Part shown: positions 2,894-61,125 of the stretch, one piece after another
Position numbering within the stretch: the first letter of the stretch is position 1
Layout of the letters: the number at the start of each line of letters is the position of its first letter
From: a virus
Reading direction: 5' to 3' (one strand)
Virus record (IMG/VR): IMGVR_UViG_3300037088_000232
Length of the DNA: 64,000 nt
The notes under the pieces: generated by a model
Database searches by the model: none
Told to the model about the DNA's origin: nothing
What the model saw: only the letters and a program-made list of their open reading frames with translations
Program-made: the position numbers and the translations under genes

Positions 2894-2948
2894 CAGATAT
2901 TCAAAAAGGTTACAAAAATTTTTAATATATAAAGAAAAAATCTTTCTT

Positions 2949-6777: not shown

Positions 6778-6937
6778 CTAAAATGATTTGAAGTTTATCT
6801 GACCTATCTTCATTGATAATTCTTGATACTATTGAATCAGTAAAAGTATTAATGTCATTTTTTTCTATTAACTGAGGATTGTGATAAGCATCGTTAAGTT
6901 CTTTTTCGATCTCTGTCCAAAATTCTTTTGAAATCAT
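6740..6937 (-). CDS. member of tandem paralog family (short)
   Basis: C-term DRSDKLQIILDE; 65 aa. Confidence 0.4.
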   Translation of the reverse strand: MISKEFWTEIEKELNDAYHNPQLIEKNDINTFTDSIVSRIINEDRSDKLQIILDEKDDKKTQFDK

Positions 6938-8428: not shown

Positions 8429-8902
8429 TTAAATAATTATTTCATCTCTTATTAATATGGATATAGCGTCTTTCAGAGCTTTACCATCGAATCCTTTAGT
8501 CTGATCTATTTCCACCATATTGTCTATTTGTTCAACTAACATATCAATATGATGGTCATCTAAGATAACATAATTCGTAACATATTTTAGTTCATTTTCA
8601 CCATCGAATGAATTAAACTTATTTAACCATTCTTTAATTTCTAATCCTTTGGGAACTTTAATGGTTTCATCTTCTTTAATCGAAAAATTCGGAGTGATTC
8701 CAAGTATTTCACCTTTAACACCATTATCATATAAAATTTTTGTAACATCGTGTTTTCTTTTCCAATCTGAGGTTACAACTATTTTAGCCCCCGTTTTACG
8801 AATAAGTTCATTGAGATTGTCAATATTTCTCATATTGAATCCCTTGGCACTGGCTGGAATTAACACACCATCAAAATCCAAAAATATAATTTTGTATGTC
8901 AT
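8429..8902 (-). CDS. small HAD-superfamily phosphatase (resembles HAD domain of RNA-repair 'Swiss-army-knife' proteins)
   Basis: Motif I FLDFDGVL at N-terminus, 157 aa, VILDDHH motif III/IV-like. Confidence 0.6.
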   Translation of the reverse strand: MTYKIIFLDFDGVLIPASAKGFNMRNIDNLNELIRKTGAKIVVTSDWKRKHDVTKILYDNGVKGEILGITPNFSIKEDETIKVPKGLEIKEWLNKFNSFDGENELKYVTNYVILDDHHIDMLVEQIDNMVEIDQTKGFDGKALKDAISILIRDEIII

Positions 8903-22453: not shown

Positions 22454-22804
22454 ATGGAAAATTTATTAACTTTCGAAAAATTCATAACAGAAATGGCTGG
22501 GAAAAAAGGTTTCATGGATGTTTATACCAAAAAATATGATCCAAGTAAAAGGGGTTATGGTAATCCCGATAAATGGAAAGATGCTTTTGATATTAGAATG
22601 GATAGGGATGTGGCTAAAGGAATCTTAGCTAACAAAGATCCATATGATGTACTTGGTATTCCAAAAACAGCCAATAAATACGAAATAAAGAGTGCATATA
22701 GAAAGTTAGCTATGGAGTTTCATCCAGACAGGAATCCAAATAAAGATACCACAAAAATTTTCCAAGAAATACAAGCTGCCTACGAAATGTTAAGAGAAGA
22801 TTAA
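22454..22804 (+). CDS. CTS-tagged J-domain (DnaJ-like) protein
   Basis: N-term MENLLTFEKFITE; J domain DPYDVLGIPKTANKYEIKSAYRKLAMEFHPDRNP. Confidence 0.8.
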   Translation: MENLLTFEKFITEMAGKKGFMDVYTKKYDPSKRGYGNPDKWKDAFDIRMDRDVAKGILANKDPYDVLGIPKTANKYEIKSAYRKLAMEFHPDRNPNKDTTKIFQEIQAAYEMLRED

Positions 22805-23187: not shown

Positions 23188-23688
23188 TTATTCCATTTCC
23201 AAAACATTCGATGGAATTAATACATTTTTGTTTATGATAACCCAAGCGATATTATCTCCTTTACCATTCAAATCATCTGGAATTTTAACTACATCATACC
23301 CCTCATTCTTTGCATGTGATACGATAAAATCACATTTATGGGTTTTTGACTGAATATCATATTGAAAAAGTCTACCAGAAGTAATATAATTTTCTAAATC
23401 TGTATCTTCTAATTCATCACCATAAATAATTTCATTTTTCACCATCCAACTATATAAATCATATCCGTCACTTAAATCTAAAATTGAGGCTCCATTTTTT
23501 AATTTAAAGGTTAATATATTATTTCCATAATCTTTGGCTACTGAACGAGAGGTACTGGTGTAAATACCTTTTAATCTCTTATCTGGTTCTATTTCACTCT
23601 CAGTTATATTTTCATTCGTTCCATGATATAAAGTAACTAAAAACAGTTCTGATGATTGTTCCTCGAATATTTTGAATTTCTTAATCAT
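23188..23688 (-). CDS. ART-fold-like protein (H-G-T / S-T-S / E-hydrophobic motifs)
   Basis: LYHGTNE ... IYTSTSRS ... KNEIIYGD; weak CTS-like N-term MIKKFKIFEE. Confidence 0.4.
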   Translation of the reverse strand: MIKKFKIFEEQSSELFLVTLYHGTNENITESEIEPDKRLKGIYTSTSRSVAKDYGNNILTFKLKNGASILDLSDGYDLYSWMVKNEIIYGDELEDTDLENYITSGRLFQYDIQSKTHKCDFIVSHAKNEGYDVVKIPDDLNGKGDNIAWVIINKNVLIPSNVLEME

Positions 23689-24472
23689 TTTTCAAAATTT
23701 TTGTTGTATAAATTGTTGATCCAGATTTAATTTTTTCATATTCTGATTTATCAATGATGAACAATTTTGCTGTTTTTACTATTCTTGAAACTTGAAAATG
23801 TAATCCAACATCAGAAAGATTTGTTTCTCCCATACAAACATCAAATGTACAATCTTTTTGTTCTCTTGAAACATTTAACACATATTGTAAATTCTCTATT
23901 TTCTTATTCCAAAATTCCAATAAACTATCTTTGTTTGAAAATGGTGTTAAATTAAAATGTTCACCCCCACTTGGATTTGTTCTTTTTTGAAGATATATAA
24001 AGAATGTTTTTTTATTTTCTTTACCAATTAACTCGTCTCTTATTCCGATCTCTTTAATATTCGGATCATGGGACAATCCAACTTTTATACCAATATTTAA
24101 TTTGTTTATTCGATTCATTTCAGAACGAAAATACATTCCATGTGAACCCCCATAATCCTTATAAATATTTCTTTGTGCTAATAAAACATGAATCATTTCG
24201 TGGGCCAACACATCTCTTAGTTGTTGTCTTGTAAAACTGAAATTTTTAGATATGCATAATCTGTGAGCGGTCATTGTAATACTATGAGTCGTTCTATTTT
24301 TTAATGCCGTTATGTCAACAAAAGCTTTCGAATTCTTATTTGTGACAAAGACAATTGGAATTTTCTTTATTTCATTGTTAAAACATAATTCATTTACATC
24401 GTCAAATTCATTTTCAACATCATGTTCGAATTGAAAATTTTCATTTAAAAAATCTGTGAAGTCTGTTATCAT
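23681..24472 (-). CDS. CTS-tagged SprT-like zinc metalloprotease
   Basis: N-term MITDFTDFLNE; VLAHEMIHVLLAQ...H HExxH motif. Confidence 0.55.
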   Translation of the reverse strand: MITDFTDFLNENFQFEHDVENEFDDVNELCFNNEIKKIPIVFVTNKNSKAFVDITALKNRTTHSITMTAHRLCISKNFSFTRQQLRDVLAHEMIHVLLAQRNIYKDYGGSHGMYFRSEMNRINKLNIGIKVGLSHDPNIKEIGIRDELIGKENKKTFFIYLQKRTNPSGGEHFNLTPFSNKDSLLEFWNKKIENLQYVLNVSREQKDCTFDVCMGETNLSDVGLHFQVSRIVKTAKLFIIDKSEYEKIKSGSTIYTTKILKND

Positions 24473-29362: not shown

Positions 29363-30262
29363 ATGGACACAAAGAAACTACAAAAACAAACTGCTGATAC
29401 ATTCAAAGAAAATTTCGGTTACACACCATTTTCTGAGCGTTTAAAAGATATTACAAATGAATTCTTTGAACTGATGAAATGGAATGATATAAAGAACATC
29501 AAGGAAGAAACAGGTGACTTGATGGCTTCTTTAATCATGTTGGCTGAGGAATCAGGATGGAATTTTGAAGATTTAGTTAAAGATACTCTCATAAAAATAA
29601 ACCGTAGAAGGGAACAATATAAGACACTTGGTAGGAAAATAAAAGTGGCTCTTTACGGTGGAGCTTTTGATATGATCCACGATGGTCATATTCAAACAGC
29701 TAAATTCGTTTTGGATACCAGTAATGAATTCGATGAAGTATGGATTTTACCATGTTTTCATCATATGTATAATAAAAGTATGGCACCGGCCGAACATCGT
29801 TTGGAGATGGCTCGAATAGCCGCTGAGGTTGACAAACGAATCAAAGTGTTCGATTATGAAATCAGAAATAAATTTTTCGGGGAAACCTTCTATTTTGTTA
29901 AAAGGTTAAAGGAAGAAACCAATCTTACAGAGATGTATAATTTTTCTATGATTATCGGTCAGGATAACGCCAATACATTCGATACATGGGTAAATTATCA
30001 GGAACTTGAAAGAATGATGAGATTTGTCATTATACCACGAAAAGGGGTCGAAAGGATGGGGAACATTGATTGGTATCTGAAACCCCCTCATATCTTCTTA
30101 AATAAGGAAAAAACGGGTATTATCGAAGCATCATCAACCGAATTAAGGAAGATGATGAAAAGCTATTGGAAAACACCAACCGAAAAGAAGAAAAATCAAT
30201 TATTGGAAAAATTAGATGTCAATGTTTTTGATTATATTTTAAGGAACAATCTATACCACTAA
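29363..30262 (+). CDS. MazG-like NTP pyrophosphohydrolase fused to NMN/NaMN adenylyltransferase (NadD/NMNAT-like)
   Basis: N-term MazG-like EETGDLMASLIMLAEESGWNFEDL..KINRR; C-term LYGGAFDMIHDGH ((H/T)xGH) and ASSTELR (ISSTxIR). Confidence 0.65.
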   Translation: MDTKKLQKQTADTFKENFGYTPFSERLKDITNEFFELMKWNDIKNIKEETGDLMASLIMLAEESGWNFEDLVKDTLIKINRRREQYKTLGRKIKVALYGGAFDMIHDGHIQTAKFVLDTSNEFDEVWILPCFHHMYNKSMAPAEHRLEMARIAAEVDKRIKVFDYEIRNKFFGETFYFVKRLKEETNLTEMYNFSMIIGQDNANTFDTWVNYQELERMMRFVIIPRKGVERMGNIDWYLKPPHIFLNKEKTGIIEASSTELRKMMKSYWKTPTEKKKNQLLEKLDVNVFDYILRNNLYH

Positions 30263-31455: not shown

Positions 31456-31766
31456 TGGATAATATTATAGTAATCGGAATCGGACCAATTGGTAGTGCAC
31501 AACTCCGTACTCTTGAAATCGTTGGAAAGTTGGATGGTGCCGAAATCGAAATTATCCATGTTGAAAATTTAAATGAATTAAAAGAAAAAGGAATAGTCGG
31601 AGATCTGGTTATCAGTAATGAACCAATCATGGAATTAAGATCACTTCCACCTTTACCAGTAATAAACATTTCTGATTATAATTTTTTTACTGATAGTAGA
31701 AAAAGTAGATATCAGAAAAGAGAATTCAGGAAGCCAGCCACTCCCATAAAAAAGAGAAAGAAATGA
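31455..31766 (+). CDS. hypothetical protein
   Basis: 103-aa ORF, overlaps flanking genes by 1-4 nt. Confidence 0.4.
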   Translation: MDNIIVIGIGPIGSAQLRTLEIVGKLDGAEIEIIHVENLNELKEKGIVGDLVISNEPIMELRSLPPLPVINISDYNFFTDSRKSRYQKREFRKPATPIKKRKK

Positions 31767-32639
31767 AACACGAGAAACGAAAAGTAGCTCTCATTTCTGT
31801 ATTTGCGGCCATTTTTCTAACCACATTTAAATTGGGGATAGGAACTTGGACAAACAGTTTGGGTATTTTATCCGAGGCACTCCATTCGGGATTGGATTTA
31901 GTCGCCGCTTTGATTACCTTATATGCTGTCAAGGCGTCAGTTAAAGAGGCCGATAAGGATCATCATTATGGACATGGTAAGATTGAAAATTTTTCAGCCC
32001 TAATTGAAACATTCCTTCTGTTTATAACCTGTTTCTGGATTTGTTGGGAATCTATTCACCGATTAATCAATGGAAATGTTGATATAAAGATAAGTGTATT
32101 CAGTTATATCATCGTCATAACATCTTTGGAGATCCCGTAAACTTCATAGGACAGCTAAAAAATACAACAGTCCAGCATTGGAAGCCGACGCCATTCATTT
32201 TTCAACAGACATATGGAGTTCATCGGTTGTTCTTTTCGGTTTGATATGTGTGACGATAGGTAAGTTGGTTGGTATGAGATGGTTGTTCTATGCTGACTCC
32301 GTTGCCGCTTTGTTTGTCGCATTGATTGTTATTCATGTATCATACCGACTTGGAAGAAAAGCCGTAGATTCTTTACTTGATAAAGTACCCTTTGATGTAG
32401 CTAAAGATATTGAAGATGTCATAAAGAATTATGGAGATGATATTAAATGTTATCATGGATTTAAAATAAGACAATCTGGACATATCTACTATGTTGATGT
32501 CACCATTCATGTTGGATGTATTACATTGGTTGAGGCACATGAAATATCTGATGATTTAGAAGAAAAAATAAAAAAGGTTCAACCCTTTACTGATGTGACT
32601 ATTCATGTTGAACCACACAATCATCATTCTAAAAAATAA
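31763..32639 (+). pseudogene. cation-diffusion-facilitator (CDF) metal efflux transporter split by a frameshift near 32118-32140
   Basis: ORF1 31763-32140 has TM1-3 and HHYGHGKIE; ORF2 frame (TTG at 32178) reads LHRTAKKYNSPALEADAIHFSTD (CDF signature) back to a stop at 32118; C-terminal cytoplasmic domain intact. Confidence 0.65.
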
Positions 32640-37188: not shown

Positions 37189-37437
37189 ATGAAAAGATTT
37201 ACTCAATTTGTAAAAGAAGAAAAAGAGTACAGAGCAAAAGCCAGAACTGATAGATTTCATTTCGGAACTGAAATAACTGGTGTTGAAGTGGAACTCATTT
37301 CTGATTTGTATGGTAGTGAGGTTTCTGATACTGAAGTAAGAGTGGTAAGTGAGGGAACAATTTGTGTAATAGCTGGTGATACCATAGAACAATTTAAGAA
37401 AGAATTACAAGATGTAATTGATAAATACAAAATATGA
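37189..37437 (+). CDS. CTS-tagged small protein
   Basis: MKRFTQFVKEE; first of four overlapping CTS genes. Confidence 0.4.
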   Translation: MKRFTQFVKEEKEYRAKARTDRFHFGTEITGVEVELISDLYGSEVSDTEVRVVSEGTICVIAGDTIEQFKKELQDVIDKYKI

Positions 37438-38027
37438 AAACATTTACTGAATTTTTATTGGAAGCTAAGGGGGGTAAGAAAGTAATAGCTTATCACTTAT
37501 CTAACCAATTGGAACATATGTTAAAAGCTGATTTCAAAATGGACCATAGTAGTGATATTTCCATATTTGGTCGTGCCATTTATTTTTCCAGCAGTCCAGA
37601 TATAAGATTTTATCCGATGAGGGGAGGTAAAAAAATATATACTTGTAAATTTGAAATAACATTGGAAGAACCTTTATTGGACATGAATCGTGAGATACCA
37701 GTATTTGAAGCGAACCGTCTTTTAAATGATTTTCGTATCATATTAGAGAATAAGAATCCAACATATTTGAGAGAATTACAGAATTATAATTTTGAAAGTG
37801 AATTTAAAGATACTATTCAGATGGGAGAATTTTTTGATACCATATACACTCGTCATGTAGAATCAAGTAAGTATTTCGATTATTTCATACATAATTATTT
37901 GAAATACAATTCATTTCAATATTTTCAAAATTCTTTAACAGATTATATAACTGAAAAAGAGGATTATGGCATATCATATGGAGTATATGATAAAAAGAAT
38001 ATAAAATTCATAGATGGACCATTTTAA
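37434..38027 (+). CDS. CTS-tagged ART-fold-like protein (H / S-S-S / E motifs)
   Basis: MKTFTEFLLEA (7 of 11 identical to T4 CTS); VIAYHLSN ... IYFSSSPD ... KFEITL. Confidence 0.4.
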   Translation: MKTFTEFLLEAKGGKKVIAYHLSNQLEHMLKADFKMDHSSDISIFGRAIYFSSSPDIRFYPMRGGKKIYTCKFEITLEEPLLDMNREIPVFEANRLLNDFRIILENKNPTYLRELQNYNFESEFKDTIQMGEFFDTIYTRHVESSKYFDYFIHNYLKYNSFQYFQNSLTDYITEKEDYGISYGVYDKKNIKFIDGPF

Positions 38028-38454
38028 AACATTTAAAGACTTTTTACTTGAATCTACCAACATAAAAACCAAAGAAGAATTATTTGGTAAAAAAATGTAT
38101 CATGGTACTACCTTAGAAACTTGGAGAGAATTGGAGAAAAGTTATTTATTTGTAACAGATGAAGAAGAACATGCTCAATATCACGCTATAAGTCGAACAG
38201 AGGGAATGATACATAATGGGGATAAGGAATACGATAAATTAACGGCTGTCGTGTTTGAAATTGTGATAGATGAAGAAATATTAAATTTAGAATGGGTAGT
38301 TGATGATGATGATGGGAACAGATCATTTTTTGAAACATGGTTAGATTCTTACAATGCAGTAGGAACATTTGTAATTATGGGAATTGATTCAAGTAAATTT
38401 AAAGAAGTATTCAAAGAAAAAATAACAAAAGAAACATCAATAAGATATTTATGA
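38014..38454 (+). CDS. CTS-tagged ART-fold-like protein (H-G-T)
   Basis: MDHFKTFKDFLLES; KMYHGTTLETW ... LFVTDEE ... VVFEIVI. Confidence 0.4.
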   Translation: MDHFKTFKDFLLESTNIKTKEELFGKKMYHGTTLETWRELEKSYLFVTDEEEHAQYHAISRTEGMIHNGDKEYDKLTAVVFEIVIDEEILNLEWVVDDDDGNRSFFETWLDSYNAVGTFVIMGIDSSKFKEVFKEKITKETSIRYL

Positions 38455-40636: not shown

Positions 40637-40670
40637 GAAAAGGGATGTCGTTGACACCCCTTTTTCTTTT
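40637..40670. terminator. bidirectional rho-independent terminator
   Basis: gggatgtc-gtt-gacacccc stem followed by T5CT4; A-run on other side. Confidence 0.65.
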
Positions 40671-41550
40671 ATAATTGTTCCTTACATTTCAATAAATTCT
40701 GTTCTTGCTCTTTTGTTAATTGAGGATATTCCAGATTTAATTTTTTCATTCTCTCAACCAAAATTTTCGAAACAATAAGTCGTGATGTTTTTTTATGATT
40801 GGCCGGAACAACATACCAAGGACAATCATCGGTGGATGTTTCATTAATCAGATCTTCATAACATTTCATATAATCACCCCAGAACTGACGCTCTTTTAAG
40901 TCAGATTCCGAAAATTTCCAATTCTTAGATTTATCATCAATCCTCTCCAGTAATCTTTCTTTTTGTTCTTTTTTGGATATGTTCAAGAATATTTTTATAA
41001 CGACTGTTCCATTTTTATGAAGCATCTTTTCAAAATTTCTTATCTGTTCATATCTTTCTTCAAAGATATCCTTATGAATCAAAACGGTTGGAATTCTCTG
41101 AAATTTTATCAGATCATGAACCTTAACTACGAGAACTTCTTCATAATAGGAACGATTAAAGATACCAATGTGTCCTCTCTCTGGTAAACTTTTGTGAGCT
41201 TTCCATAAGAAATCATGATTCAATTCCTCTGAAGTGGGTTGTTTAAAACTATAAACCTGAGTTGCTTGGGGATTAAGACCCGACATTACATGCTTAACGA
41301 TTCCGTCTTTACCAGCCGTATCAAGCGCTTGAATAATTAATAGTATTGAATATTTACCATCAGCATATAACTTATCCTGTAAATCAATGAGGCTTTTTAT
41401 GTTCCCCTCTATTTGTTCGGTAATATCGGAATCGACATCATTCAAATCAATATCATTTAAATTAATATCAACTTTTCCCTTACCGTTTATTTCAAATTGT
41501 TTTATATTCATATTTTTTCCTCTAAAAATTGTTTTATATCGAGCATACAT
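40669..41550 (-). CDS. ppk2: polyphosphate kinase 2 (PPK2) family nucleotide phosphotransferase
   Basis: Walker A DTAGKDG, IFNRSYYEE, KIFLNISKKEQKERLLER, PWYVVPANHK. Confidence 0.85.
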   Translation of the reverse strand: MYARYKTIFRGKNMNIKQFEINGKGKVDINLNDIDLNDVDSDITEQIEGNIKSLIDLQDKLYADGKYSILLIIQALDTAGKDGIVKHVMSGLNPQATQVYSFKQPTSEELNHDFLWKAHKSLPERGHIGIFNRSYYEEVLVVKVHDLIKFQRIPTVLIHKDIFEERYEQIRNFEKMLHKNGTVVIKIFLNISKKEQKERLLERIDDKSKNWKFSESDLKERQFWGDYMKCYEDLINETSTDDCPWYVVPANHKKTSRLIVSKILVERMKKLNLEYPQLTKEQEQNLLKCKEQL

Positions 41551-52302: not shown

Positions 52303-52887
52303 ATGAACAAGTTCATTATGAATTTTGATTCCTTCATTAAAGAAAATAAAAAAACAACTATAGCCGAATTACCAGAAGAAGTGACCAAAAGTGCAAAGAC
52401 CATAGTAGATGGTAATTTTGATCATGCTTTAAAGAAAACTTTTGATGGTGATATGATAAGATTTAAAGTTAATCCCGAAGATTTTAATTATGTTGATCCT
52501 CAACAACATCTTGAACTGGAATTGGGAGAAGGTCCATCAAAGAAAAGAAAATTCGATGTTACTCTAATATTTGTTCAGGCAATTGAAGCTACCGAAAGAG
52601 AAAAAGAAAAAAGTAAAGATTCATCAGGTCATTCTAAAGTCGGTGGAGAACTTATTTACAAAATAGAATTTAAACCAAAGGAATTATCTGATGATGAAAA
52701 TACAGAACATGAACAGGAAGAAGAAGATGATGTTTGGAATAAACCAGATCCAGATGATGAAGATTTAATTCCAGAAGAACCAGAAGAAGAGGGAAAACCC
52801 GTATCATCTGGTAGAAAGAAAGTTCATATTGAAGATTTAAATACTTTTTTCCAAACGAGTGATGGTGACGATGATTCTGAACTTTGA
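52303..52887 (+). CDS. CTS-tagged, highly acidic protein (D/E-rich C-terminal half)
   Basis: MNKFIMNFDSFIKEN; EHEQEEEDDVWNKPDPDDEDLIPEEPEEEG. Confidence 0.45.
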   Translation: MNKFIMNFDSFIKENKKTTIAELPEEVTKSAKTIVDGNFDHALKKTFDGDMIRFKVNPEDFNYVDPQQHLELELGEGPSKKRKFDVTLIFVQAIEATEREKEKSKDSSGHSKVGGELIYKIEFKPKELSDDENTEHEQEEEDDVWNKPDPDDEDLIPEEPEEEGKPVSSGRKKVHIEDLNTFFQTSDGDDDSEL

Positions 52888-53284
52888 TGATTATTTAAGT
52901 ATAAATGAGAATTCTGAGAAGATAATCGTTGGTTATCATGTAGCTCCATCGAAATTAGATTCCAAAATTTTAAAAGAGGGTATTAAAAAGATACCAAAAG
53001 AAAGATATTCCAGACTTGGTAAAAAAGAAATGTCACCAATAAGAAATTATTTTTGGTTGGATTTGAAATATGCTGAATGGTTTAAAGAATTCAATGAAGA
53101 AGATGGATATAATCCACAAGAGATGACAATATGGAAAGTCGATTTATCAGGTTATGATTTAATTAAGGATGAAGAAGCAAGTGATATGAGTGAATGGAGT
53201 TCTCAATTTTCAAAAGGTGAAGATGGTAAAGCTGTTTATGTAGAAAGAAACATACCACCAGATAGAATTATAGATGAAGTTTAA
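52859..53284 (+). CDS. CTS-like small protein, ART-fold-like (H variant) weak
   Basis: MILNFDDYLSINE; IVGYHVAP ... QEMTIWKV. Confidence 0.3.
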   Translation: MMVTMILNFDDYLSINENSEKIIVGYHVAPSKLDSKILKEGIKKIPKERYSRLGKKEMSPIRNYFWLDLKYAEWFKEFNEEDGYNPQEMTIWKVDLSGYDLIKDEEASDMSEWSSQFSKGEDGKAVYVERNIPPDRIIDEV

Positions 53285-53288
53285 TTGA

Positions 53289-55268
53289 TTATTTAAGTTT
53301 TGAAAAACGACCCAGAGTGGTTTGTTTCTTTCCCTGATATTCCTCATGTCTCTTAATTTCAGCTGTAGCTGATACCACATCACCTACTAAAATATCATTA
53401 ATAATGAGATTCCCCTGTTCGTCTTTTTGTCTACCTTGTTCAGTAGGTTTTACAATGAACTGAGAACCAATAGTACCAAACTTAGTATAAATATTTCCTA
53501 TCTGGTCTTTTAATTTATATACATTTGACCAATTCCATTCTGTTTGGTATCCACTGATATGAACCACTTCAAGATTTTCAAGTCTTGATTTTTCTCCAAC
53601 TGTACCAACATATTCTGATTCTTTCTTACCACCAGAGAGAGCTTCTTCAGCTTCTCTTCTTTTCCTATCTTCCTGAGAGAGTTTACCGAAGTACCAAGAA
53701 CAAGCACCTGTAATGTAATACAGGAGATGTTTCTGAACGGCACCGGCCTTAATCATGTTACTGGCGTTAAAGATGAAGTTATTATCACGATTGGCGTGAA
53801 TGAAATCAATAACCCATTGTAATTCTTCATCGGATGTGGTTTCTAATCTCTCATTGTATATTGTGACAAAATCAGACCATCTATTAAAATCTTCTTGATA
53901 TTCTGATGAACTTTTACCATGATAATTTCTTCTGTCAGGGGGGTTATGAGCGTAATCAACATCATCTTGTACTCTACCTGATGTTGATTTAACTTCTTTT
54001 TTATTATAATATTCTTCTTTTGGATGATCAGGGTCAGCGAGATAATCTTGGTCTCTTTTTTGATTAATCTTCTCAGCTGTTGCTTTGGACATATATCCAT
54101 TCTTTTTGTAGAACCAATAGAAATACTTGATTACCTCATTAGTTGAGATCTCCACATCAAATTTTGGACCCCAACCACCACTAAATCCTTCATCCCAATC
54201 ATCACCACCACCATCGAAATCACCGTAACTTTCATCAAGGAATGAAATATCGGTTAAATAGGATAATACCTTTTCATAATCATATCCCAAATAGTTACGA
54301 ATACATGAACCCCCAACCCTGAGGATCTCACCTGTCTTTATTTTCTGAACAAAAACAGTCTTGTTTCTGTATATGGTTCTTTTACAATGATCACAATATG
54401 AATGACCTATCATCTGGTCAGGAACTAAACTAATTGGAACTTGTTGACCCGGAGCATTTTTCAAAAGTCCGTCTTTGTGATCAATAGTACCCAAAATTAA
54501 CCATTCATCCTCAGGTTTAAGGACGGTAGCCATTTTCAGGTCATATACTTCAACTTCTTTGGATACTACTCTCCAAGGTTCAAACAATTTATTATCTTCA
54601 TCATCATTCCAAACTTCCATTCCCAATTTTGACTTTTTTTGTTTTTCAATAGAATCTTTATTGAGAAAATTACATCTATCGGTGGCTTCGTTTATATCTG
54701 TATAAACAATCACCACCCTATCTGTTTCTTCTGGTTTTTCTTTCTTTGAAACGGTTTTCCTGTCGTATGATAATCCTCTTTCACTTGGATGACAACAGGC
54801 GAAATATTTTTTCTTTTCAATAAGAGTAAGTGTGGGTTCGGGGACTTTAATAAACTTGGATACTTTCGCTATTCTTCTGAATATTTTTTCAAATGTTTTT
54901 TTCTTATCGTCACTACTTTTGTGTGTATCACTACCAACAGGAATCTCAATCCTCTTTGTTTCTACGGTATAGAATAATTTTATATCTTTACCCTGATTGT
55001 CATCAACTGGATTTTCAGAATCAAGAATTTCTTGAGTAGAAAAGGTCACGAATGCATTAGTCTTTTCGCTTACACATCCCCAATGGTCAGGAATTCCTTT
55101 ACTCTTTACAACCCACCATCCATTCTGATGATAGAATCGAGTACCTATTCCGACTTCTTGATTTTGGGCTTCTTCTTTGAGAAATGTAGGGTAATCACTC
55201 ACGATTCTATCTGACTTTTCCATGTTGGTAGGGATTTGAACTACAAAAATACTATATTTCTCTAACAT
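53289..55268 (-). CDS. large hypothetical protein
   Basis: 659 aa, G/D-rich segment GGGDDWDEGFSGGWGPKFD; no recognised motifs. Confidence 0.45.
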   Translation of the reverse strand: MLEKYSIFVVQIPTNMEKSDRIVSDYPTFLKEEAQNQEVGIGTRFYHQNGWWVVKSKGIPDHWGCVSEKTNAFVTFSTQEILDSENPVDDNQGKDIKLFYTVETKRIEIPVGSDTHKSSDDKKKTFEKIFRRIAKVSKFIKVPEPTLTLIEKKKYFACCHPSERGLSYDRKTVSKKEKPEETDRVVIVYTDINEATDRCNFLNKDSIEKQKKSKLGMEVWNDDEDNKLFEPWRVVSKEVEVYDLKMATVLKPEDEWLILGTIDHKDGLLKNAPGQQVPISLVPDQMIGHSYCDHCKRTIYRNKTVFVQKIKTGEILRVGGSCIRNYLGYDYEKVLSYLTDISFLDESYGDFDGGGDDWDEGFSGGWGPKFDVEISTNEVIKYFYWFYKKNGYMSKATAEKINQKRDQDYLADPDHPKEEYYNKKEVKSTSGRVQDDVDYAHNPPDRRNYHGKSSSEYQEDFNRWSDFVTIYNERLETTSDEELQWVIDFIHANRDNNFIFNASNMIKAGAVQKHLLYYITGACSWYFGKLSQEDRKRREAEEALSGGKKESEYVGTVGEKSRLENLEVVHISGYQTEWNWSNVYKLKDQIGNIYTKFGTIGSQFIVKPTEQGRQKDEQGNLIINDILVGDVVSATAEIKRHEEYQGKKQTTLGRFSKLK

Positions 55269-55275
55269 AAAAAAA

Positions 55276-55812
55276 TTATTTGGCTTTATTTTTTACCAAA
55301 GAAACTAAATTTTCCAAAGAATCAGATATATCACTTTTCTCACCGTCAGTAGTTTTTTTCCAATCAACTTCACGAATAGTTTTTGTTATATTTCTGATTT
55401 GTTCTCTTATGAATTGGAGTTTCCTATATGTCTGAGTATCAGATTCATTTAATAAATTCTCTTTCATTTCTGGTAATTTATCTGGTAAATCGTATTGAAT
55501 AATAAGAATTTTACGTTTTTCATCAGCAAGATCTGATTTTATTTCATATGAATAATCCCAATCTACTATTAACATGAGTGCATTCTTTTCAGTAATTGGA
55601 ATCAAATTACTTTTTTTATATGGTTTAACAGAATAACCTTTAAGAAGTGCGGCATATTCACCACTACAATAATCTAATGGAATACTAATTTCTTGTTTTG
55701 TTTTATTATTGAAAATGATATAAAAAGCTTTGCATTTGGATATTTCCAACAATTTGTCAACATCTTTAACAAGATCTAATTTTTCATTAAATTTTTTGAA
55801 TCTTATAATCAT
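55276..55812 (-). CDS. hypothetical protein (weak CTS-like N-term MIIRFKKFNE)
   Basis: 178 aa. Confidence 0.4.
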   Translation of the reverse strand: MIIRFKKFNEKLDLVKDVDKLLEISKCKAFYIIFNNKTKQEISIPLDYCSGEYAALLKGYSVKPYKKSNLIPITEKNALMLIVDWDYSYEIKSDLADEKRKILIIQYDLPDKLPEMKENLLNESDTQTYRKLQFIREQIRNITKTIREVDWKKTTDGEKSDISDSLENLVSLVKNKAK

Positions 55813-56552
55813 ACATATTTCAATTTATTTAAACCGTAATAGTAATCAACAACTCTTGCTTTGATTACACCCATTGTTTGAGCATTCCAAGATGTAGTTG
55901 CATGTGGTCTTTCCAATAAGGCTGTTAACCATATTATATCACCTCTTTTAACAGATTTTACTTTTAATTCGGTAGAAAAAACAGGTCCACCACTAACAGA
56001 TTCAAGTTTCTTAATCTTTTCTGGATCAGTTATGATTCCAGTGACTTGTAAAATTTTTACTGGTTCTTTAACTTTTTCAATTTCACCATCTTCGAGTTCT
56101 TGAAATACCATGATATCATCGGATAAGGGATCAAATTCCTTGGTCTTGTCGAATTTCTTTATTTTATCCTCTTTAAAATCAGCAAATTTTGTTGTTATAT
56201 TATTATCTTTATCTTCTTCTACCGCTTTATCAAGAGCTAATAAATTTTTATATACTTTTCTTCTCATTCTCTTTTTCTTTTCTTCTTCTATTGGTGTTTC
56301 TTTCTTTTTTCTCCTTCTTCTTTGATTAAAATAATCACTCTTAACATCCTTTATTTCTTCTGTTCCTAATACCTTTTTATCTCCGTTCCAATCACCGATA
56401 CTACTAATACTGGTAATACTTCCACTACTATATTTACCACTTGCTATAATAGGTTGTTGACGGTCATCCGCGTGTATACCCCCACTACCACAACCAACAA
56501 CATCACGATAATCTTCATTTATAAATTCATTGTATGTCAGGATATTCTTCAT
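55809..56552 (-). CDS. CTS-tagged hypothetical protein
   Basis: MKNILTYNEFINE; 247 aa; K/E-rich middle. Confidence 0.45.
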   Translation of the reverse strand: MKNILTYNEFINEDYRDVVGCGSGGIHADDRQQPIIASGKYSSGSITSISSIGDWNGDKKVLGTEEIKDVKSDYFNQRRRRKKKETPIEEEKKKRMRRKVYKNLLALDKAVEEDKDNNITTKFADFKEDKIKKFDKTKEFDPLSDDIMVFQELEDGEIEKVKEPVKILQVTGIITDPEKIKKLESVSGGPVFSTELKVKSVKRGDIIWLTALLERPHATTSWNAQTMGVIKARVVDYYYGLNKLKYV

Positions 56553-57017
56553 TTATTTCCTTATCTTATTTATTTCTTCAACTTTCATTACCTTCTCACC
56601 AACACCAGAATCGATACAACTTTGAATTTCACTTTGTAATTGTTTTATATTGGAGAAACCTTTTACACTTGATGGTAAAGATTTCTTCATCATCATATTA
56701 CTCAAAGCATTACCCATACCAGAACTTTGCCATCCAGAGAAAAATGAATATCCAATTGAATCATCTGACCTCTGATTAACAGCCAAAGTGTGTTTATTAT
56801 GATAAATATCTTCTGTTCTAAATTTAAGCAAAAGTATACTTTCTTTAGTTTTAGAATCTAATTTTTCAATGGCAGCGTCTTTCATGAAATCTAAAACTTC
56901 ATCTGGAATGGTACTATTGTTTTTTCTTATCCAAATATATGCATCCATAATTTCTTTTCTGAAAGAATCAACTGGAGTTGCATTTTCATTCAATTCAAAT
57001 TCTTTAATGTGTTTCAT
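56553..57017 (-). CDS. CTS-like hypothetical protein
   Basis: MKHIKEFELNEN; 154 aa. Confidence 0.4.
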   Translation of the reverse strand: MKHIKEFELNENATPVDSFRKEIMDAYIWIRKNNSTIPDEVLDFMKDAAIEKLDSKTKESILLLKFRTEDIYHNKHTLAVNQRSDDSIGYSFFSGWQSSGMGNALSNMMMKKSLPSSVKGFSNIKQLQSEIQSCIDSGVGEKVMKVEEINKIRK

Positions 57018-57033
57018 ATATTGATTTTATTTT

Positions 57034-57654
57034 TTATTTACCCTTGTATATATTAATTATTTTTATCTGGTTATCATTAAAAACTATCCAATCCCATCTT
57101 TCATCTGATGACCATTCTATTTCATTCAAATAATGTATGGAATCATAACCCTGTTCAATTAAATATTGTTTGTAATCAAGTGTTAATTTCTTTTTATCAA
57201 ATGTGTTATCTTCTAATAGAAAATGATTCAATGAAATTATTTTATTTTCTCTATCGAATGGTGTTATATTACTATATGTTCTATATAATAAGTAATTCTT
57301 TTCAATGAATTCCTTGTCAACATAGTCATTTTCACCTCCCCATTTCAGCATATCCCTCACTAATTGACTTTCTCTCTTTTTTAAAATCTTGTTAACCTTG
57401 ATTTCAACTTCATAAACAACATAATTGGGTGGTTTTGAGAATAATCTTTCGGCCATTTTTTTATCGGGGGTGAAGTGAATTCCAAGAAAATCCATTAAAT
57501 GTACAACATTTCGGCTACTTCCTAATTTTTCATTTGAAAATTTATCGAATACTATTCCACTTCCATGATATAATGGACCAACTATATTGTTTTTTTTTTC
57601 AAATATGTAAAATTTCGTTACCATTTTATTTCCAATCTTGGTTTTAAATCCCAC
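57034..57654 (-). CDS. ART-fold-like protein, H-G-S paralog A
   Basis: GPLYHGSG ... VVHLMDFLGIHFT ... YVVYEVEIKV. Confidence 0.4.
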   Translation of the reverse strand: MGFKTKIGNKMVTKFYIFEKKNNIVGPLYHGSGIVFDKFSNEKLGSSRNVVHLMDFLGIHFTPDKKMAERLFSKPPNYVVYEVEIKVNKILKKRESQLVRDMLKWGGENDYVDKEFIEKNYLLYRTYSNITPFDRENKIISLNHFLLEDNTFDKKKLTLDYKQYLIEQGYDSIHYLNEIEWSSDERWDWIVFNDNQIKIINIYKGK

Positions 57655-58202
57655 ACTTTTAATACTTTTATTTGTTCTGATTTAAAGATAATCCAATCAA
57701 ATCTTTTAATGTCTGGTGATTCTATTTCATTTATATACTTAATACAATCATATCCTTGATTCATTAGGTGGTTTTTATATTCCAATGAAATTTCTTTTGC
57801 TTTTCCATCTGTTAAATTAAATAATTGATTCATTAAACAATTCTTTGTTCCAAAATATGGTAAATCAAATATGTTTTTTGATGGAAAAATTGATAAATCG
57901 ATTATCTTTTTTTCAAGTCCAAACTTCAACATTTCTTTGACTAAATTACCCTCTTTTATTTTCAAGAATTTGTTATATTTCAATTCTATTTCGTAGATAA
58001 TATAATCAGGTGGATTTGTAAATCTTTCAGCAACAGTATCATTTTCAGTAAAATGAATCCCAAGAAAACTTAATAAATGACCATCTTGACCCAATCTATT
58101 AAAGTCAAAGATATCAAATTTACGGCCAGAACCATGAAATAATGGATGTTCATATATTTTAGATTCATTAATGAAACTATTATAAGACAACAGGTTTATC
58201 AC
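57618..58202 (-). CDS. CTS-tagged ART-fold-like protein, H-G-S paralog B
   Basis: MINLLSYNSFINE; HPLFHGSG ... FLGIHFTEND ... YIIYEIELK; clear paralog of 57034-57654. Confidence 0.45.
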   Translation of the reverse strand: MINLLSYNSFINESKIYEHPLFHGSGRKFDIFDFNRLGQDGHLLSFLGIHFTENDTVAERFTNPPDYIIYEIELKYNKFLKIKEGNLVKEMLKFGLEKKIIDLSIFPSKNIFDLPYFGTKNCLMNQLFNLTDGKAKEISLEYKNHLMNQGYDCIKYINEIESPDIKRFDWIIFKSEQIKVLKVWDLKPRLEIKW

Positions 58203-58911
58203 TATTCTTGGATTTTATTTTTATGTAGAAAGAAACATCATCCTCGGAATCATCAATGTATGCTTCTATCTTTTTACCCCAAGGATATTTATTACACCAT
58301 TCAACAAAAGTATTAGTTAGATCATCGGAATTTTTCATATTATCTTTTAATAATTCTTTTGAAATGACTTTTCTGAGTCTCATAGTTGTTAAGATGATTA
58401 TTCCTTTACTGGTCTTATCTTCAAAGAAATATTTTAGATCTTTTTTGATTTCATGTAATAAAGTTAATGTTTTAGTGGATGCTATTCTCAGTACCCCACT
58501 TATCATAGCTAAACAACTATATGATTTTATTTGTCTCAATTCATTGTCTTTTATATTTAATTGTCCAGTTTTATAAATAACATCTTTTAGATCATTATAA
58601 AAACCATATTCTAAAATACCATTCCTGATACCGAAATAAAAAGATAATTTCTCATTACTGATTTTACCATATGTTCTGAATGTATTCTTAACAGAATCTT
58701 TAAATTCAAATCCATCTAATACATCTATTGGTTTTTTTATCCACTCGGTTCTAAAAAAATAAAGGAAGTTTCCAGTATTCAAATAATTTCCAGATTTAAT
58801 AAATGAAAATTTCATTTCATCTAATGTGTGTAAAAACATATAGAATCCGTAACGACCATCTACGGGTGATCCCTGATTTTCCTTTATATATGTTAAAAAA
58901 TCCTTTATCAT
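58180..58911 (-). CDS. CTS-tagged hypothetical protein
   Basis: MIKDFLTYIKEN; 243 aa. Confidence 0.4.
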   Translation of the reverse strand: MIKDFLTYIKENQGSPVDGRYGFYMFLHTLDEMKFSFIKSGNYLNTGNFLYFFRTEWIKKPIDVLDGFEFKDSVKNTFRTYGKISNEKLSFYFGIRNGILEYGFYNDLKDVIYKTGQLNIKDNELRQIKSYSCLAMISGVLRIASTKTLTLLHEIKKDLKYFFEDKTSKGIIILTTMRLRKVISKELLKDNMKNSDDLTNTFVEWCNKYPWGKKIEAYIDDSEDDVSFYIKIKSKNSDKPVVL

Positions 58912-58922
58912 GAATGTATATA

Positions 58923-59387
58923 TTAATTTACAAAGTTGGCTTCTACTTCCTGCATCAAATCATCTAAATCATAAAAATCATCATCATCTGGTTCAAATTC
59001 AAGATTTCTTTCATCAAAGAATTTCCAGAATCCATAAGATGCACTATAAAATTTATCATCTATTGACGATTCATGTTCTATTTCTTGGGGATAGGTGAAA
59101 CAACCATGATATTCTTTTCCTTTATATTTTAAAGTTCCATTGACAATTATTTTTTTATCCTCATTTTTTGTAGAGTCATAATCAAATTCAAAATGTCCTT
59201 TTTCATAATATTTTTGTATCTTTATATCACCCTGATTCTGAAGTATTTCTTTTTCAAAATCCGTTAAAGAATCTTTACCGTGTTTGTTTATTTTATCCAA
59301 TATTTTATTTATATTTTCTTCGTGATATTCAAACATTTTAAATTTTGTTATCATATGATTTTTCATAAATATTTTTTCTCTTTCCAT
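58923..59387 (-). CDS. hypothetical acidic protein
   Basis: 154 aa; weak CTS-like MITKFKMFEYHEE after internal Met. Confidence 0.35.
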   Translation of the reverse strand: MEREKIFMKNHMITKFKMFEYHEENINKILDKINKHGKDSLTDFEKEILQNQGDIKIQKYYEKGHFEFDYDSTKNEDKKIIVNGTLKYKGKEYHGCFTYPQEIEHESSIDDKFYSASYGFWKFFDERNLEFEPDDDDFYDLDDLMQEVEANFVN

Positions 59388-59398
59388 TGAAAGTTGTA

Positions 59399-60955
59399 TT
59401 ATATATTTTTATCAACTACCCATAAGTATTTAGCTGGTATGCTCTTTCCTTGTATGTAACAATTACCTGTAAATAAACTCATTTGGTCTTTATATAATAT
59501 ACCTAAATTCAAATCATCTGTATTTATACCCACAATCGCATATGGTTCTTTATCTGTTTTATCTATCTGCTTCCATACTTTTAATTCCTTTATTAATGAA
59601 TATAAAACCTCTTTGTTCGTAGACATATAGATTCTCGGTGGGTACTTGTGTCGAATATCTTCCGACTTGGATTTTAAACCATGTTTCAAAATATCATTTA
59701 ATCTGGACATTGGACAAGCATGATATAATGTATCTGGAATTAATACATACCCCTTACTCCACTTCGGAGAAATACTTAATGTATGTGTGTTCTTAATCCT
59801 TGTCATTGATGCCCTTGAATACCAACCAAATTTGTTTATGTATTTCAATAACTTGTCAATAAACTCTTTATCATCTAAATCTTCATACCACTTGTAAATA
59901 TCTTCATATTTATCATGACCTTTATAAATACCCCATATCGTTATGGATTCACCACTTATACCTTCTGGTCTGTCAATGTTAATTTCAGGAAACCTTTTTA
60001 TTAACTTGTTATACATAGTCTGACCATCTATCGATTCATTATTCTTCTCTAATAATACAAATTCAAATTCTCCAAAATTGATTATCATTCTATGATGATT
60101 TTCATAAATATTTTTACTCTTTCCATTGAAAGTTGTGTTTTCACCAGTTGCTATTTTTATTCGTTTAGGATTTGTTACCACATATTCATCAGCGAACTGT
60201 GCTCCAGTGTCCGCATTCCTGATTATTTTACAATGAATACTACTATCTGGAACTCGATTTAAACCCACACCTACATTCTCCCCATCTTCTTCCTCAATAA
60301 TTGTCGCTTTTATAAAGCATGGATATATGTAACCCTCTTGATTGTCGTATTTACTTTGAATTTCTTCCAATTCCTTATTCAATTCAATATCGTATTTTTT
60401 ATCCAAGTGTACAAATTCACTTAGTTTTGGACTGATTTCATCTATGTTCTTCTTACCTATCCAAAACAATAAATCCATCAATGTCTTTGATACTTCTTTC
60501 CAATTATCTGATTTCACCCAACTACTTAAATTATAATAACCAGTAGACTTACCATACTCCTTTTCTATGAAAGATAACATTCCATCCCATACCGACATAT
60601 CTACCGTCTTTAAAAATTCAATCTTGTCTTTTTCTATTTTCTCGTTATATTTCTCGTTAACCTCATTCCTTTCATTGTAATACGATCTTGGATAACATTG
60701 TGAATAATGTGTTGCAACATTCAGGTTTGAAAACCAAAAAGCATATTCAGCACCCATCTGACCAGAAGTATCATTCATACCATATTTGAATTCTGTGAAT
60801 TTATAAGGGCTTCCATGATAAACTACCAATGGTTTACCATTTTTATCCACTATTTTACTGGTCTTTTTATTCGGATGTTCCCAATCACCAAACCAATCCT
60901 TAAACTCTTTGGAATGAATGATTTTCTCATATGTTTCTTTGTCTAACTTCATCAC
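59399..60955 (-). CDS. hypothetical protein with N-terminal H-G-S segment
   Basis: 518 aa; LVVYHGSPYKFTEF near N-terminus. Confidence 0.4.
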   Translation of the reverse strand: MMKLDKETYEKIIHSKEFKDWFGDWEHPNKKTSKIVDKNGKPLVVYHGSPYKFTEFKYGMNDTSGQMGAEYAFWFSNLNVATHYSQCYPRSYYNERNEVNEKYNEKIEKDKIEFLKTVDMSVWDGMLSFIEKEYGKSTGYYNLSSWVKSDNWKEVSKTLMDLLFWIGKKNIDEISPKLSEFVHLDKKYDIELNKELEEIQSKYDNQEGYIYPCFIKATIIEEEDGENVGVGLNRVPDSSIHCKIIRNADTGAQFADEYVVTNPKRIKIATGENTTFNGKSKNIYENHHRMIINFGEFEFVLLEKNNESIDGQTMYNKLIKRFPEINIDRPEGISGESITIWGIYKGHDKYEDIYKWYEDLDDKEFIDKLLKYINKFGWYSRASMTRIKNTHTLSISPKWSKGYVLIPDTLYHACPMSRLNDILKHGLKSKSEDIRHKYPPRIYMSTNKEVLYSLIKELKVWKQIDKTDKEPYAIVGINTDDLNLGILYKDQMSLFTGNCYIQGKSIPAKYLWVVDKNI

Positions 60956-61125
60956 TTTCTATATATAAAAATAAAAAGATAAAATGAACAACGATCAGAT
61001 TAAATCAAAAATAATGAAAAGAGTTTTGGAATTAACAGAGGAATTAAAAAATCATATTCATTCAGTGAATATCGAATTCAGTCCAGACGATAAGAAAATA
61101 ATTGTGGATTTTAATATATAAATCT

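Follow-up and report, generated by a model that had tools for sequence, protein, structure and literature searches.

A tandem pair of paralogous genes

The stretch of viral DNA analysed here (the window; 64,000 nucleotides of IMG/VR record IMGVR_UViG_3300037088_000232) carries two overlapping genes on the minus strand, at 57034-57654 and 57618-58202, whose open reading frames (ORFs) encode proteins of 206 amino acids (aa), counted from a GTG start, and 194 aa; we refer to them as A and B. A more probably starts at an ATG at 57624, which gives a protein of 196 aa, because MITxFK opens most orthologs. The initial annotation had described the two genes as tandem paralogs with common ordered motifs, and this was confirmed: every quoted motif was found in the ORF translations (PLYHGSG, GIHFT, and YVVYEVEIK in A; PLFHGSG, GIHFT, and YIIYEIELK in B), and BLASTP aligned the proteins with 42% identity across 178 residues (E 9e-42). 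The same pair is present on another IMG/VR contig (L005), with ortholog identities of 57% for B and 50% for A, compared with 40% between A and B. By sequence comparison the duplication is an old one, with all motifs retained in both copies. Upstream of B, and overlapping it by 23 nt, lies a conserved gene (58180-58911, minus strand) for a 243-aa protein that has an alpha/beta fold, is not an ADP-ribosyltransferase (ART), and carries a capsid-targeting (CTS)-like leader of its own; a search for an informative match to this product found none. Neither megablast of positions 55000-61000 nor tblastn of A gave a match among 50,697 GenBank phage records.

Family membership and fold

A matched the Pfam family ART-PolyVal (PF18760) at 40.9 bits (cut-off, 31.2), its residues 28-200 corresponding to profile positions 9-133 of 140, while B (31.0 bits; E 4.9e-07) fell 0.2 under the same 31.2 cut-off. 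Against an HMM of the A clade B scored 235 bits, a value that is partly circular, as B was among the sequences from which the HMM was built. Precomputed PF18760 annotation was present on 18 of 18 close homologs. In A the domain covers residues ~23-204 and includes a helical insert of ~70 aa (residues 95-167), and an AF2 model (pLDDT 83) has the ADP-ribosyltransferase fold. The suggestion that A and B are ART-fold proteins is thus borne out by the profile matches together with the model. An exhaustive profile search recovered 419 cluster representatives, many of them within proteins of 1,000 to 7,300 aa in which Pol-beta NTase and N6-MTase domains were also found; the nearest non-orthologous relatives of A and B sit in proteins of 1,000 to 3,000 aa, while A and B themselves are single-domain, stand-alone proteins. 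We classify them as stand-alone ART-PolyVal members, that is, as new members of a known family. Sequence-based profile searches against the PDB returned spurious repeat-protein matches only, and a literature search found no experimental papers on the ART-PolyVal family.

In the description of the family by Iyer, Burroughs, Anand, de Souza, and Aravind (2017; PMC5512222), His lies on strand 1, Tyr on strand 2, and Asp on strand 5, and delivery by the virion is predicted. A and B resemble this family (the Tox-ART-HYD2 or H-Y-D clade) in sequence membership, fold, the H-G-[ST] and G-x-[YH]-F motifs, phage origin, the Asp that their close clade has at what appears to be the strand-5 position, and the prediction of an effector that travels with the DNA (PMC5512222). 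They differ in size and arrangement, being ~190 aa and free-standing, whereas the usual members are domains of the giant "polyvalent" proteins (1,000 to 7,000 aa) that phages and conjugative elements encode; in having His for the strand-2 Tyr and a helical insert of ~70 aa; and in the proposed means of delivery, a short, cleavable T4-like leader instead of fusion to MuF, zincin, or RNAP modules. The ejection protein gp28 of cyanopodophage A4 (PDB 9k3a_B; PMC12002296) is a different kind of molecule, with 1,071 aa and several domains, including lytic transglycosylase and M23 peptidase domains; its alpha+beta domain is given no assignment in the structural paper (PMC12002296), and a sequence-level match between it and A or B was not found.

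Kinship with Tpt1/KptA had also been considered. A and B share the ART superfamily fold and an L-Y-H-G-T-like strand-1 motif with those enzymes, but the profile match (PF01885, PTS_2-RNA) and the two-lobed structure with an RNA-binding N-lobe that would mark members of that family were not found. A related possibility is that A and B act on nucleic acids or NAD+ and not on proteins, as a Tpt1/KptA-like RNA 2'-phosphotransferase, an RNA-end ADP-ribosylase, a DarT-like DNA ADP-ribosylase, or an NADase. Such an activity would link them to the PARG and RNA-repair genes of the phage; the PARG gene, to which the initial annotation had tied the family, lies at 7526-8410, 49 kb away and in another gene cluster, so that the tie was not sustained. 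We regard action on nucleic acids or NAD+ as improbable.

Active-site residues

The canonical triad positions of A appear to be H30 (57565-57567), H60 (57475-57477), and D188 (57091-57093), all on the minus strand, and the equivalent positions of B, on the same strand, are H23, H50, and D169. H-G-S lies on strand 1, G-I-H-F-T at the strand-2 Tyr position, and D-W-I-V-F apparently at the position of the canonical acid, and the triad of both proteins appears to be H-H-D, a variant of the H-Y-D published for the family. Across 95 family domains, H30 (99%), G31 (92%), S/T32 (97%), G58 (98%), and F61 (98%) are strongly conserved; position 60 is His in 85% and Tyr in 9%, so the predominant strand-2 residue is His and not the published Tyr. 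A His in place of this Tyr is unusual among proven ARTs. Placement of the catalytic acid at D188 follows from topology and from a weak, non-significant hhalign register against the PARP14 sequence in the PDB. D188 is invariant within the close clade and 45% conserved over the wider family, in which E95 (86%) and E180 (85%) both exceed it; either of these glutamates could be the real catalytic acid instead.

The glutamates of Y-x-x-Y-E-[VI]-E-[IL], which the initial annotation had proposed as catalytic, did not hold up: E82 and E84 are conserved in 26% and 31% of the 95 domains, and the canonical acid appears to map to D188. Of the proposed PARP- or diphtheria toxin-like H-Y-E assignment, the resemblance in NAD+-binding fold stands and the family membership does not, with H30, H60, and D188 apparently filling the triad. 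The C domain of diphtheria toxin, with H-Y-E, and the mono-ART catalytic domains of PARP14, PARP15, and PARP10, with H-Y-L/I, contain a different insert from that of the H-H-D proteins A and B, which are without regulatory domains, and the comparison gave an hhalign probability of 1.5%, with no significant profile similarity.

Catalytically dead pseudo-ARTs, serving as binding or structural internal proteins, have precedents in PARP13 and in the pseudo-PARP domain of TASOR. The H-G-[ST] and G-x-[HY]-F-[TAS] motifs of the NAD site are, however, near-invariant in 95 domains drawn from very distant proteins and are kept in both of the old paralogs, and we give the pseudo-ART reading little credence.

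Other ART candidates in the window

The proposal of an expanded ART family was upheld for some of the named genes. On the minus strand, 23188-23688 encodes a divergent ART-PolyVal member of 166 aa (Pfam, 28.2 bits, E 3.6e-06; hhalign, 91.5%; phmmer to P0156, E 7.8e-24) with the CTS-like leader MIKKFKIFEE, in which the quoted motifs YHGT, YTSTSRS, and NEIIY are all present. A truncated member of 118 aa with the leader MKYLKMFEE is encoded on the plus strand at 4262-4618 (Pfam E 3.6e-10; hhalign, 95.8-97.7%) and consists of the N-terminal half only (profile positions 1-82 of 140). With these two belongs the N terminus of a 518-aa protein encoded two genes upstream (59399-60955, minus strand; Pfam E 1.5e-09; hhalign, 92.9%), so that hhalign values for the three run from 92 to 98% in round figures. 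Its ART domain contains VVYHGS, a long insert, and ADEYVV. With tblastn the 518-aa protein matched virion RNAP/zincin proteins of crAss-like phages as well as a DarB-like protein. The C-terminal domain of the same protein (~130 aa, LYHACP...HGLK) had looked Tpt1-like by eye; neither Pfam nor the PDB gave a match to it, IMG/VR contained no relatives, and similarity was limited to 18 residues of 52859-53284 (E 0.007).

The product of 37434-38027 (plus strand; AYHLS and GRAIYFSS) is a candidate for a very divergent ART, weakly supported by phmmer within a set of 183 proteins, where it matched P0023, a multi-ART-PolyVal protein (E 4e-8), and P0094 (E 1e-3); hhalign against the family profile gave 0.4%, and tblastn found nothing among the 50,697 GenBank phage records. 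Membership of the gene at 38014 was not supported, as a four-sequence profile aligned its YHGT alone, with a probability of 2-5%.

Capsid-targeting-like leaders

Cargo with a T4-type CTS has an N-terminal propeptide of 10-19 residues; in the T4 sequence MKTYQEFIAE, targeting requires residues 4 and 7, and processing requires residues 8 and 10 (PMC9026906). Leaders of 9-13 residues that reproduce these four positions precede A and B. The leader of B (58164-58202, minus strand), (M/V)INLLSYNSFINE, places Y7, F10, I11, and E13 with the spacing of Y4, F7, I8, and E10 in T4, and that of the 243-aa protein (58879-58911, minus strand), MIKDFLTYIKE, offers F5, Y8, I9, and E11. In A the leader (57598-57624, minus strand), MVTKFYIFE, is a compressed variant, in which the aromatics at i and i+3 overlap I-x-E and whose position depends on the start codon chosen; it lies in a part of the AF2 model with pLDDT <50, outside the confidently folded domain. 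The leader of 37434-38027, MKTFTEFLLE, equals that of T4 at 6/10 positions.

At the level of motif, the initial claim of a CTS on the pair holds. Counted if it started within the first 25 residues, in classes set after seeing the data and tied to the four T4 positions known from the literature, [FY]xx[FY][ILVM]xE was found at the N terminus of 11 of the 83 window ORFs against 0.64 expected, a 17-fold enrichment. The compressed variant occurs in 6 further ORFs of the 83, at the N terminus and nowhere else. Leader conservation is at the protein level and not at the DNA level, and the products that bear leaders have unrelated domains (ART, SprT-like zincin, J-domain, and DUF6576). The pI values of the tagged proteins are mixed rather than uniformly basic, which supports neither side. 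A and B might instead be active but unpackaged ARTs, working in the infected cell like ModA and ModB of T4 or countering host defence in the manner of AcrF11, an enzyme that ADP-ribosylates a CRISPR surveillance complex, and the N-terminal motif would in that case have another role, for example in folding, localization, or translation initiation; we consider this unlikely.

The source phage and the head module of a relative

We identify the source as a giant phage of ~700 kb from the Mahaphage clade, the host of which is probably a member of the Bacteroidota. A DNA polymerase fragment has 66.8% identity to that of the 735,411-bp phage LR756501.1, the next matches being T4-like cyanophages. In LR756501.1 the head module follows the T4 order, with Portal_T4 (1e-69), a Peptidase_S77-like protein (6.7e-5), and Gp23 (1.9e-25); the protease match is weak (Pfam, 22.9 bits with a cut-off of 27; tblastn E 4.5e-4). 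Genes for a T4-type prohead or a gp21-family protease were not found within the 64-kb window. LR756501.1 has 31+8 leader-tagged ORFs among 355, and despite these many tagged ORFs no ART-PolyVal domain was found in the 295 kb of 735 kb that the survey covered.

A promoter-like motif

A promoter-like motif, TTAATATATA, lies at 58917-58926 (minus strand), 5 nt ahead of the start codon (ATG) of the 243-aa gene. A second copy on the same strand (57047-57056), within the 3' end of A, precedes the next gene (56553-57017) by 29 nt, and the copies flank the cassette. The motif occurs 14 times in the window against 1.46 expected and is associated with leader-tagged ORFs (p 0.006); a related motif, TTTATATATA, stands upstream of the portal gene in LR756501.1. 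We propose that the copy at 58917-58926 is the start of a transcription unit comprising the 243-aa gene, B, and A, and the next unit apparently begins at the copy at 57047-57056. A scan for sigma-70 promoters returned fewer than in shuffles, and a scan for intrinsic terminators found none within the cassette.

Discussion

The reading that we somewhat favour is that A and B are Alt-like mono-ADP-ribosyltransferases of the ART-PolyVal family, packaged in the phage head and injected. Alt of T4 is packaged in the head and cleaved. The T4-like leader tags of A and B make it probable that both enter the host by injection together with the DNA. In the following scheme we infer that A and B are catalytically active, with D188 as the acid, and that they are packaged, cleaved, and injected; the time of expression and the target are likewise inferred. 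The three-gene unit would be transcribed from the phage-specific TTAATATATA promoter, and each leader would dock its protein on the scaffolding core of a prohead of the T4 type, where a gp21-type prohead protease would cut the leader off after its Glu. Mature A and B would remain in the head beside the DNA until ejected into the host, presumably one of the Bacteroidota, where they would consume host NAD+ and mono-ADP-ribosylate host targets at the onset of infection, as T4 Alt does.

The likeness to T4 Alt and the internal proteins IPI-III lies in the short N-terminal propeptide, with aromatics at i and i+3 followed by [ILV]-x-E, in a gp21-type protease that cuts after Glu (for A and B, predicted), in an ART injected with the DNA (for A and B, likewise putative), and in a varied cargo that has the leader alone in common. 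Alt itself belongs to an unrelated clade (R-S-E; Alt/VIP2), and T4 has a handful of CTS proteins compared with ~17-18 predicted cargo proteins with CTS-like leaders in this 64-kb window. A broader and more tentative reading, to which we give somewhat less than even chances, is that in the Mahaphage clade the T4 CTS has become a general loading device. About 10-20% of small ORFs would be leader-tagged and their products co-packaged with the DNA, among them several ART-PolyVal proteins, a SprT-like zincin, and a J-domain protein; dozens of separate tagged effectors would then replace the one giant injected polyprotein into which other phages fuse such domains, as a "distributed polyvalent protein," and among the host-modifying enzymes the tandem H-H-D ARTs would be released first.

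ART-PolyVal is among the commonest predicted effector domains in phages and conjugative elements, and A and B, as small, soluble, single-domain proteins of ~190 aa, lend themselves to expression and assay far better than polyproteins of 3,000 to 7,000 aa. Should the leaders not be genuine, what is left is a routine annotation that adds two proteins to a known Pfam family. If the distributed-loading reading is true, the capsid contents of huge phages would be predictable from sequence. If the leaders are real CTSs, the proteins injected by the largest known phages, most of whose genes lack annotation, could be recognized by a simple rule on sequence, and the way in which these phages bring several NAD+-consuming enzymes into play at entry would become clear, a matter of relevance to the many NAD+-based bacterial defence systems.

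Results

The cassette at 57034-58911 comprises three closely packed ORFs on the minus strand, encoding a 243-aa protein (58180-58911), the ART paralog B (57618-58202; 194 aa), and the ART paralog A (57034-57654; 206 aa counted from GTG, or 196 aa from the ATG at 57624, which corresponds to the MITxFK start of most orthologs). The paralogy of A and B proposed in the initial annotation was confirmed by BLASTP (42% identity across 178 residues; E = 9e-42); the motifs quoted there are all present, and every motif is kept in both proteins. The same arrangement, with a ~240-aa gene ahead of a B-type ART and then an A-type ART, is seen in IMG/VR contig L005 and also in assemblies L001, L002, L007, and L008, and contig L004 carries a 238-aa gene with one ART. 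B and A share 57% and 50% identity with their L005 orthologs versus 40% with each other in this comparison, indicating that the duplication is older than the split of these phages. In LR756501.1, a 735-kb phage relative, a minus-strand homolog of the 243-aa protein (MRSYYEYIKENEGPRLDGKHGFFMFL...; segment L017, 147001-197000) is encoded ahead of a 114-aa leader-tagged non-ART protein, and the two genes again overlap by 23 nt.

The window has a G+C content of ~28%, no tRNAs, phage-type genes (DNA polymerase, HNH and homing endonucleases, and methyltransferases), and auxiliary genes (PPK2, DUF1848, microbial PARG, HAD_SAK_2, PTH2, YqeY, and dCMP deaminase). Identical copies of the 243-aa protein and of the product of 38014 (single numbers denote ORFs by start coordinate) occur on contigs that reach 736,551 bp. 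The DNA polymerase fragment (1308-2393) is 66.8% identical to that of LR756501.1 (735,411 bp; uncultured phage) and 40 to 42% identical to those of 634- to 642-kb phages, with T4-like cyanophages next. Since LR756501.1 corresponds in size to the 735-kb Mahaphage-clade genome of Al-Shayeb et al. 2020, which has a predicted Bacteroidetes host (PMC7162821), the window is part of a Mahaphage-clade huge phage. The family-B polymerase ORF (plus strand) spans just positions 172 to 497 of a PHROG profile with 856 positions, and the gene therefore appears split; a 569-aa ORF without a family match follows (2559-4268, plus strand), and HNH/homing-endonuclease families occur elsewhere in the window.

A matches Pfam PF18760 (ART-PolyVal; E = 4.4e-10, 40.9 bits; cutoff, 31.2), and B reaches 31.0 bits against the same cutoff. 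PF18760 is also matched by the N terminus of the neighboring 518-aa protein (59399-60955, minus strand), by 4262-4618 (118 aa; N-terminal half of the domain only), and by 23188-23688 (166 aa), for which a 35-sequence family profile gave profile-profile probabilities of 92.9%, 95.8%, and 91.5%, respectively; a 95-domain profile gave similar values. The motif recurrences claimed earlier thus hold for 23188 and 4262. Neither 37434-38027 (0.4%) nor 38014-38454 (2.8%) was detected by this comparison; phmmer against a 183-protein set matched 37434 to P0023, a multi-ART-PolyVal protein (E = 4e-8), and to the stand-alone P0094 (E = 1e-3), so that it is probably a very divergent family member, and 38014 found no family support, even when its homologs were used as a profile. 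ORF 4262-4618 (plus strand) covers profile positions 1 to 82 of 140, overlaps the end of the 569-aa ORF, and is a truncated or decaying copy.

The close homologs returned by a word-indexed search numbered only 18, each of metagenomic origin and each with PF18760; when 1.84 billion cluster representatives were searched exhaustively with a profile, 419 were returned at E ≤ 1e-3. Many of the latter are domains within proteins of 1,000 to 7,334 aa, in some of which Pol-beta nucleotidyltransferase or Eco57I-type N6-methylase domains are found as well; these multidomain relatives are the polyvalent-protein context behind the family's name. The 518-aa neighbor matches crAss-like phage proteins (annotation, RNAP-associated/zincin) and a DarB-like antirestriction protein. 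By eye, its C-terminal ~130 aa (59399-59788; LYHACPMSRLNDILKHGLK...RIYMS...) resemble a second ART/Tpt1-like module; this region has no Pfam, PDB, or IMG/VR match, and its sole resemblance is to a leader-tagged 141-aa ORF at 52859-53284 (18 residues; E = 0.007).

Sequence searches matched the family to no solved structure. Structural comparison of the model of A retrieved the cyanophage A4 pre-ejectosome protein gp28 (PDB 9k3a_B; score, 9.2), PARP15 (9.0; 24% identity), diphtheria toxin (8.8), tankyrases, PARP1, and PARP4 (8.1 to 8.7), RES toxins (6.5 to 7.6), AcrF11 (6.5), Tpt1 (5.2), and DarT (about 4). The modeled fold is therefore an H-type ART near PARP and diphtheria toxin; of the two affinities suggested previously, the PARP/diphtheria toxin-like one stands, and the Tpt1/KptA-like one is not favored. 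We regard ART-PolyVal membership and the ART fold as nearly certain. The top match, gp28, is a capsid-internal ejection protein, a domain of which may itself have an ART-PolyVal-like fold.

The active site of the family was described as H (strand 1), Y (strand 2), and D (strand 5) by Iyer et al. 2017 (PMC5512222). Among 95 aligned domains, conservation was 99% for H30, 92% for G31, 97% for S/T32, 98% for G58, 85% for H60 (Tyr, 9%), 98% for F61, 93% for T/A/S62, 86% for E95, 82% for Y127, 96% for G169, 95% for D171, 87% for Y175, 84% for N177, 56% for E178, 85% for E180, and 45% for D188, which is invariant within the close clade. Comparison by hhalign with the PARP14 catalytic sequence from the PDB placed PLYHGS on QLFHGT and LGIHFT on GKGTYFA (low probability), and a C-terminal-only comparison placed GYDSIHY on LYDTVT and RWDWIVFNDNQ on PSLFVAFYDYQ (not significant). 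As this register matches the strand order of the model, we infer that H30, H60, and D188 occupy the canonical triad positions; the real catalytic acid could be E180 or E95. The expected conservation of H and S/T was found, but the YEVEI glutamates (E82, 26%; E84, 31%) are not conserved. Both the strand-2 His and the helical insert are common among the retrieved relatives and so mark no new variant. A and B are more likely than not catalytically active, and it is very unlikely that they are inactive pseudo-ARTs.

The initial annotation had also linked the ARTs to a PARG cassette and to ADP-ribose-phosphate chemistry. The microbial-type PARG (7526-8410, minus strand; GGG...QEE present; Pfam, 1.5e-26) lies 49 kb from A and B, beside a HAD_SAK_2 "Swiss Army Knife" RNA-repair phosphatase (8429-8902, minus strand; 1.6e-22), so that the link is not supported. 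We consider chemistry directed at nucleic acids or NAD+ very unlikely. A C39-like peptidase (6934-7518) also adjoins PARG, and the window encodes a cREC_REC domain protein. A MazG-like pyrophosphohydrolase fused to a cytidylyltransferase-like (NMNAT-type) domain (29363-30262, plus strand) and a PPK2 polyphosphate kinase (40669-41550, minus strand) could supply nucleotides or NAD+ amid several predicted NAD+-consuming ARTs. Two ORFs have Pfam Cation_efflux matches, probably the adjacent pair 31763-32140 and 32178-32639 (plus strand), given their membrane-like N termini; this would be one gene in two pieces through a frameshift, sequencing error, or pseudogene.

CTS, a term used but left unexplained in the initial annotation's heading, denotes a capsid-targeting sequence. 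That of T4 is MKTYQEFIAE (bioRxiv 10.1101/2021.01.19.427310); mutational work assigns targeting to residues 4 and 7 and processing to residues 8 and 10, and the gp21 prohead protease cuts after Glu (PMC9026906). A pattern built from these four positions, [FY]xx[FY][ILVM]xE starting within the first 25 residues, occurs in 11 of 83 window ORFs, with 5 matches in the other 16,187 positions (0.64 ORFs expected; ~17-fold enrichment), so a CTS-like N-terminal motif is present. A compressed variant (FK[IVM]FE and similar; e.g., FKIFE) lies at the N terminus of six further ORFs and occurs nowhere else. Altogether ~17 to 18 of the 83 ORFs are tagged, including 19435, 22454, 23681, 28192, 37434 (MKTFTEFLLE), and 38014 and those starting at 38451, 52303, 55809, 56553, 58911, and 61126. 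B (YNSFINE) and the 243-aa protein (FLTYIKE) have the full leader, and A (FYIFE), 23188 (FKIFEE), and 4262 (LKMFEE) have the compressed one. The DNA sequences of the leaders differ. In models the leaders fall outside the confidently folded part, and they precede unrelated domains: four ARTs, a SprT-like zincin, a J-domain, and DUF6576. The leader-tagged 116-aa J-domain protein (22454-22804, plus strand; DnaJ, 7.9e-20) and 263-aa zincin (23681-24472, minus strand; 4.1e-08) are candidate injected effectors, the former as a co-chaperone mimic and the latter as a metallopeptidase.

Of the 355 ORFs in 295 kb of LR756501.1, 39 are tagged (31 full, 3.06 expected; 8 compressed, 0.25 expected), and no ART-PolyVal was found among them all. 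Its T4-order head module includes Portal_T4 (1.1e-69), Gp23 (1.9e-25), and an 807-aa protein whose N-terminal part resembles Peptidase_S77 (6.7e-5, below the cutoff; T4 gp21 tblastn, 4.5e-4).

The 10-mer TTAATATATA occurs 14 times in the window (1.46 expected; 2670, 2922, 7527, 14982, 19421, 22424, 28155, 36442, 36953, 50853, 52273, 57047, 58917, and 61111), mostly 5 to 30 nt upstream of start codons and more often ahead of leader-tagged genes, and probably serves as a phage-specific promoter element. One copy stops 5 nt short of the ATG of the 243-aa gene, and the next is within the 3' end of A, 29 nt ahead of the following gene; because these copies flank the cassette, the three genes look like one transcription unit. 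The cassette has no sigma-70-like promoter excess and no terminator. The 50 nt upstream of the ORF contain T[TA]ATATATA in 7 of 18 leader-tagged versus 6 of 65 other cases (Fisher P = 0.006), and this motif is also present upstream of the 518-aa ART gene. The related TTTATATA is found ahead of 12 of 40 tagged versus 17 of 315 untagged ORFs of LR756501.1 (P = 1e-5), and the T4-like portal gene there has the motif (also given as TTTATATATA) 20 nt upstream, which suggests coexpression of tagged genes with head genes.

Discussion

The T4 ADP-ribosyltransferase Alt is packaged in ~40 copies, processed, and ejected (PMC9026906). We propose that A and B would be synthesized together with head proteins, dock onto the prohead core through their leaders, be trimmed after the leader Glu by a gp21-type protease, stay in the head, and be ejected alongside the DNA; once inside the host, they would mono-ADP-ribosylate targets using host NAD+, as Alt does. 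Packaging through the leader is, taken by itself, an evenly balanced call, and we lean slightly toward the whole model of packaged and injected ART-PolyVal proteins. That they are instead unpackaged intracellular ARTs, like ModA/ModB or AcrF11, appears unlikely.

The occurrence of a T4-like leader on at least a tenth of ORFs in the largest known phages may be novel; library searches found no description of such leaders, although a gap in an open-access library says little. A and B are stand-alone new members of a described family, with domains that in other phages are fused into polyvalent proteins.
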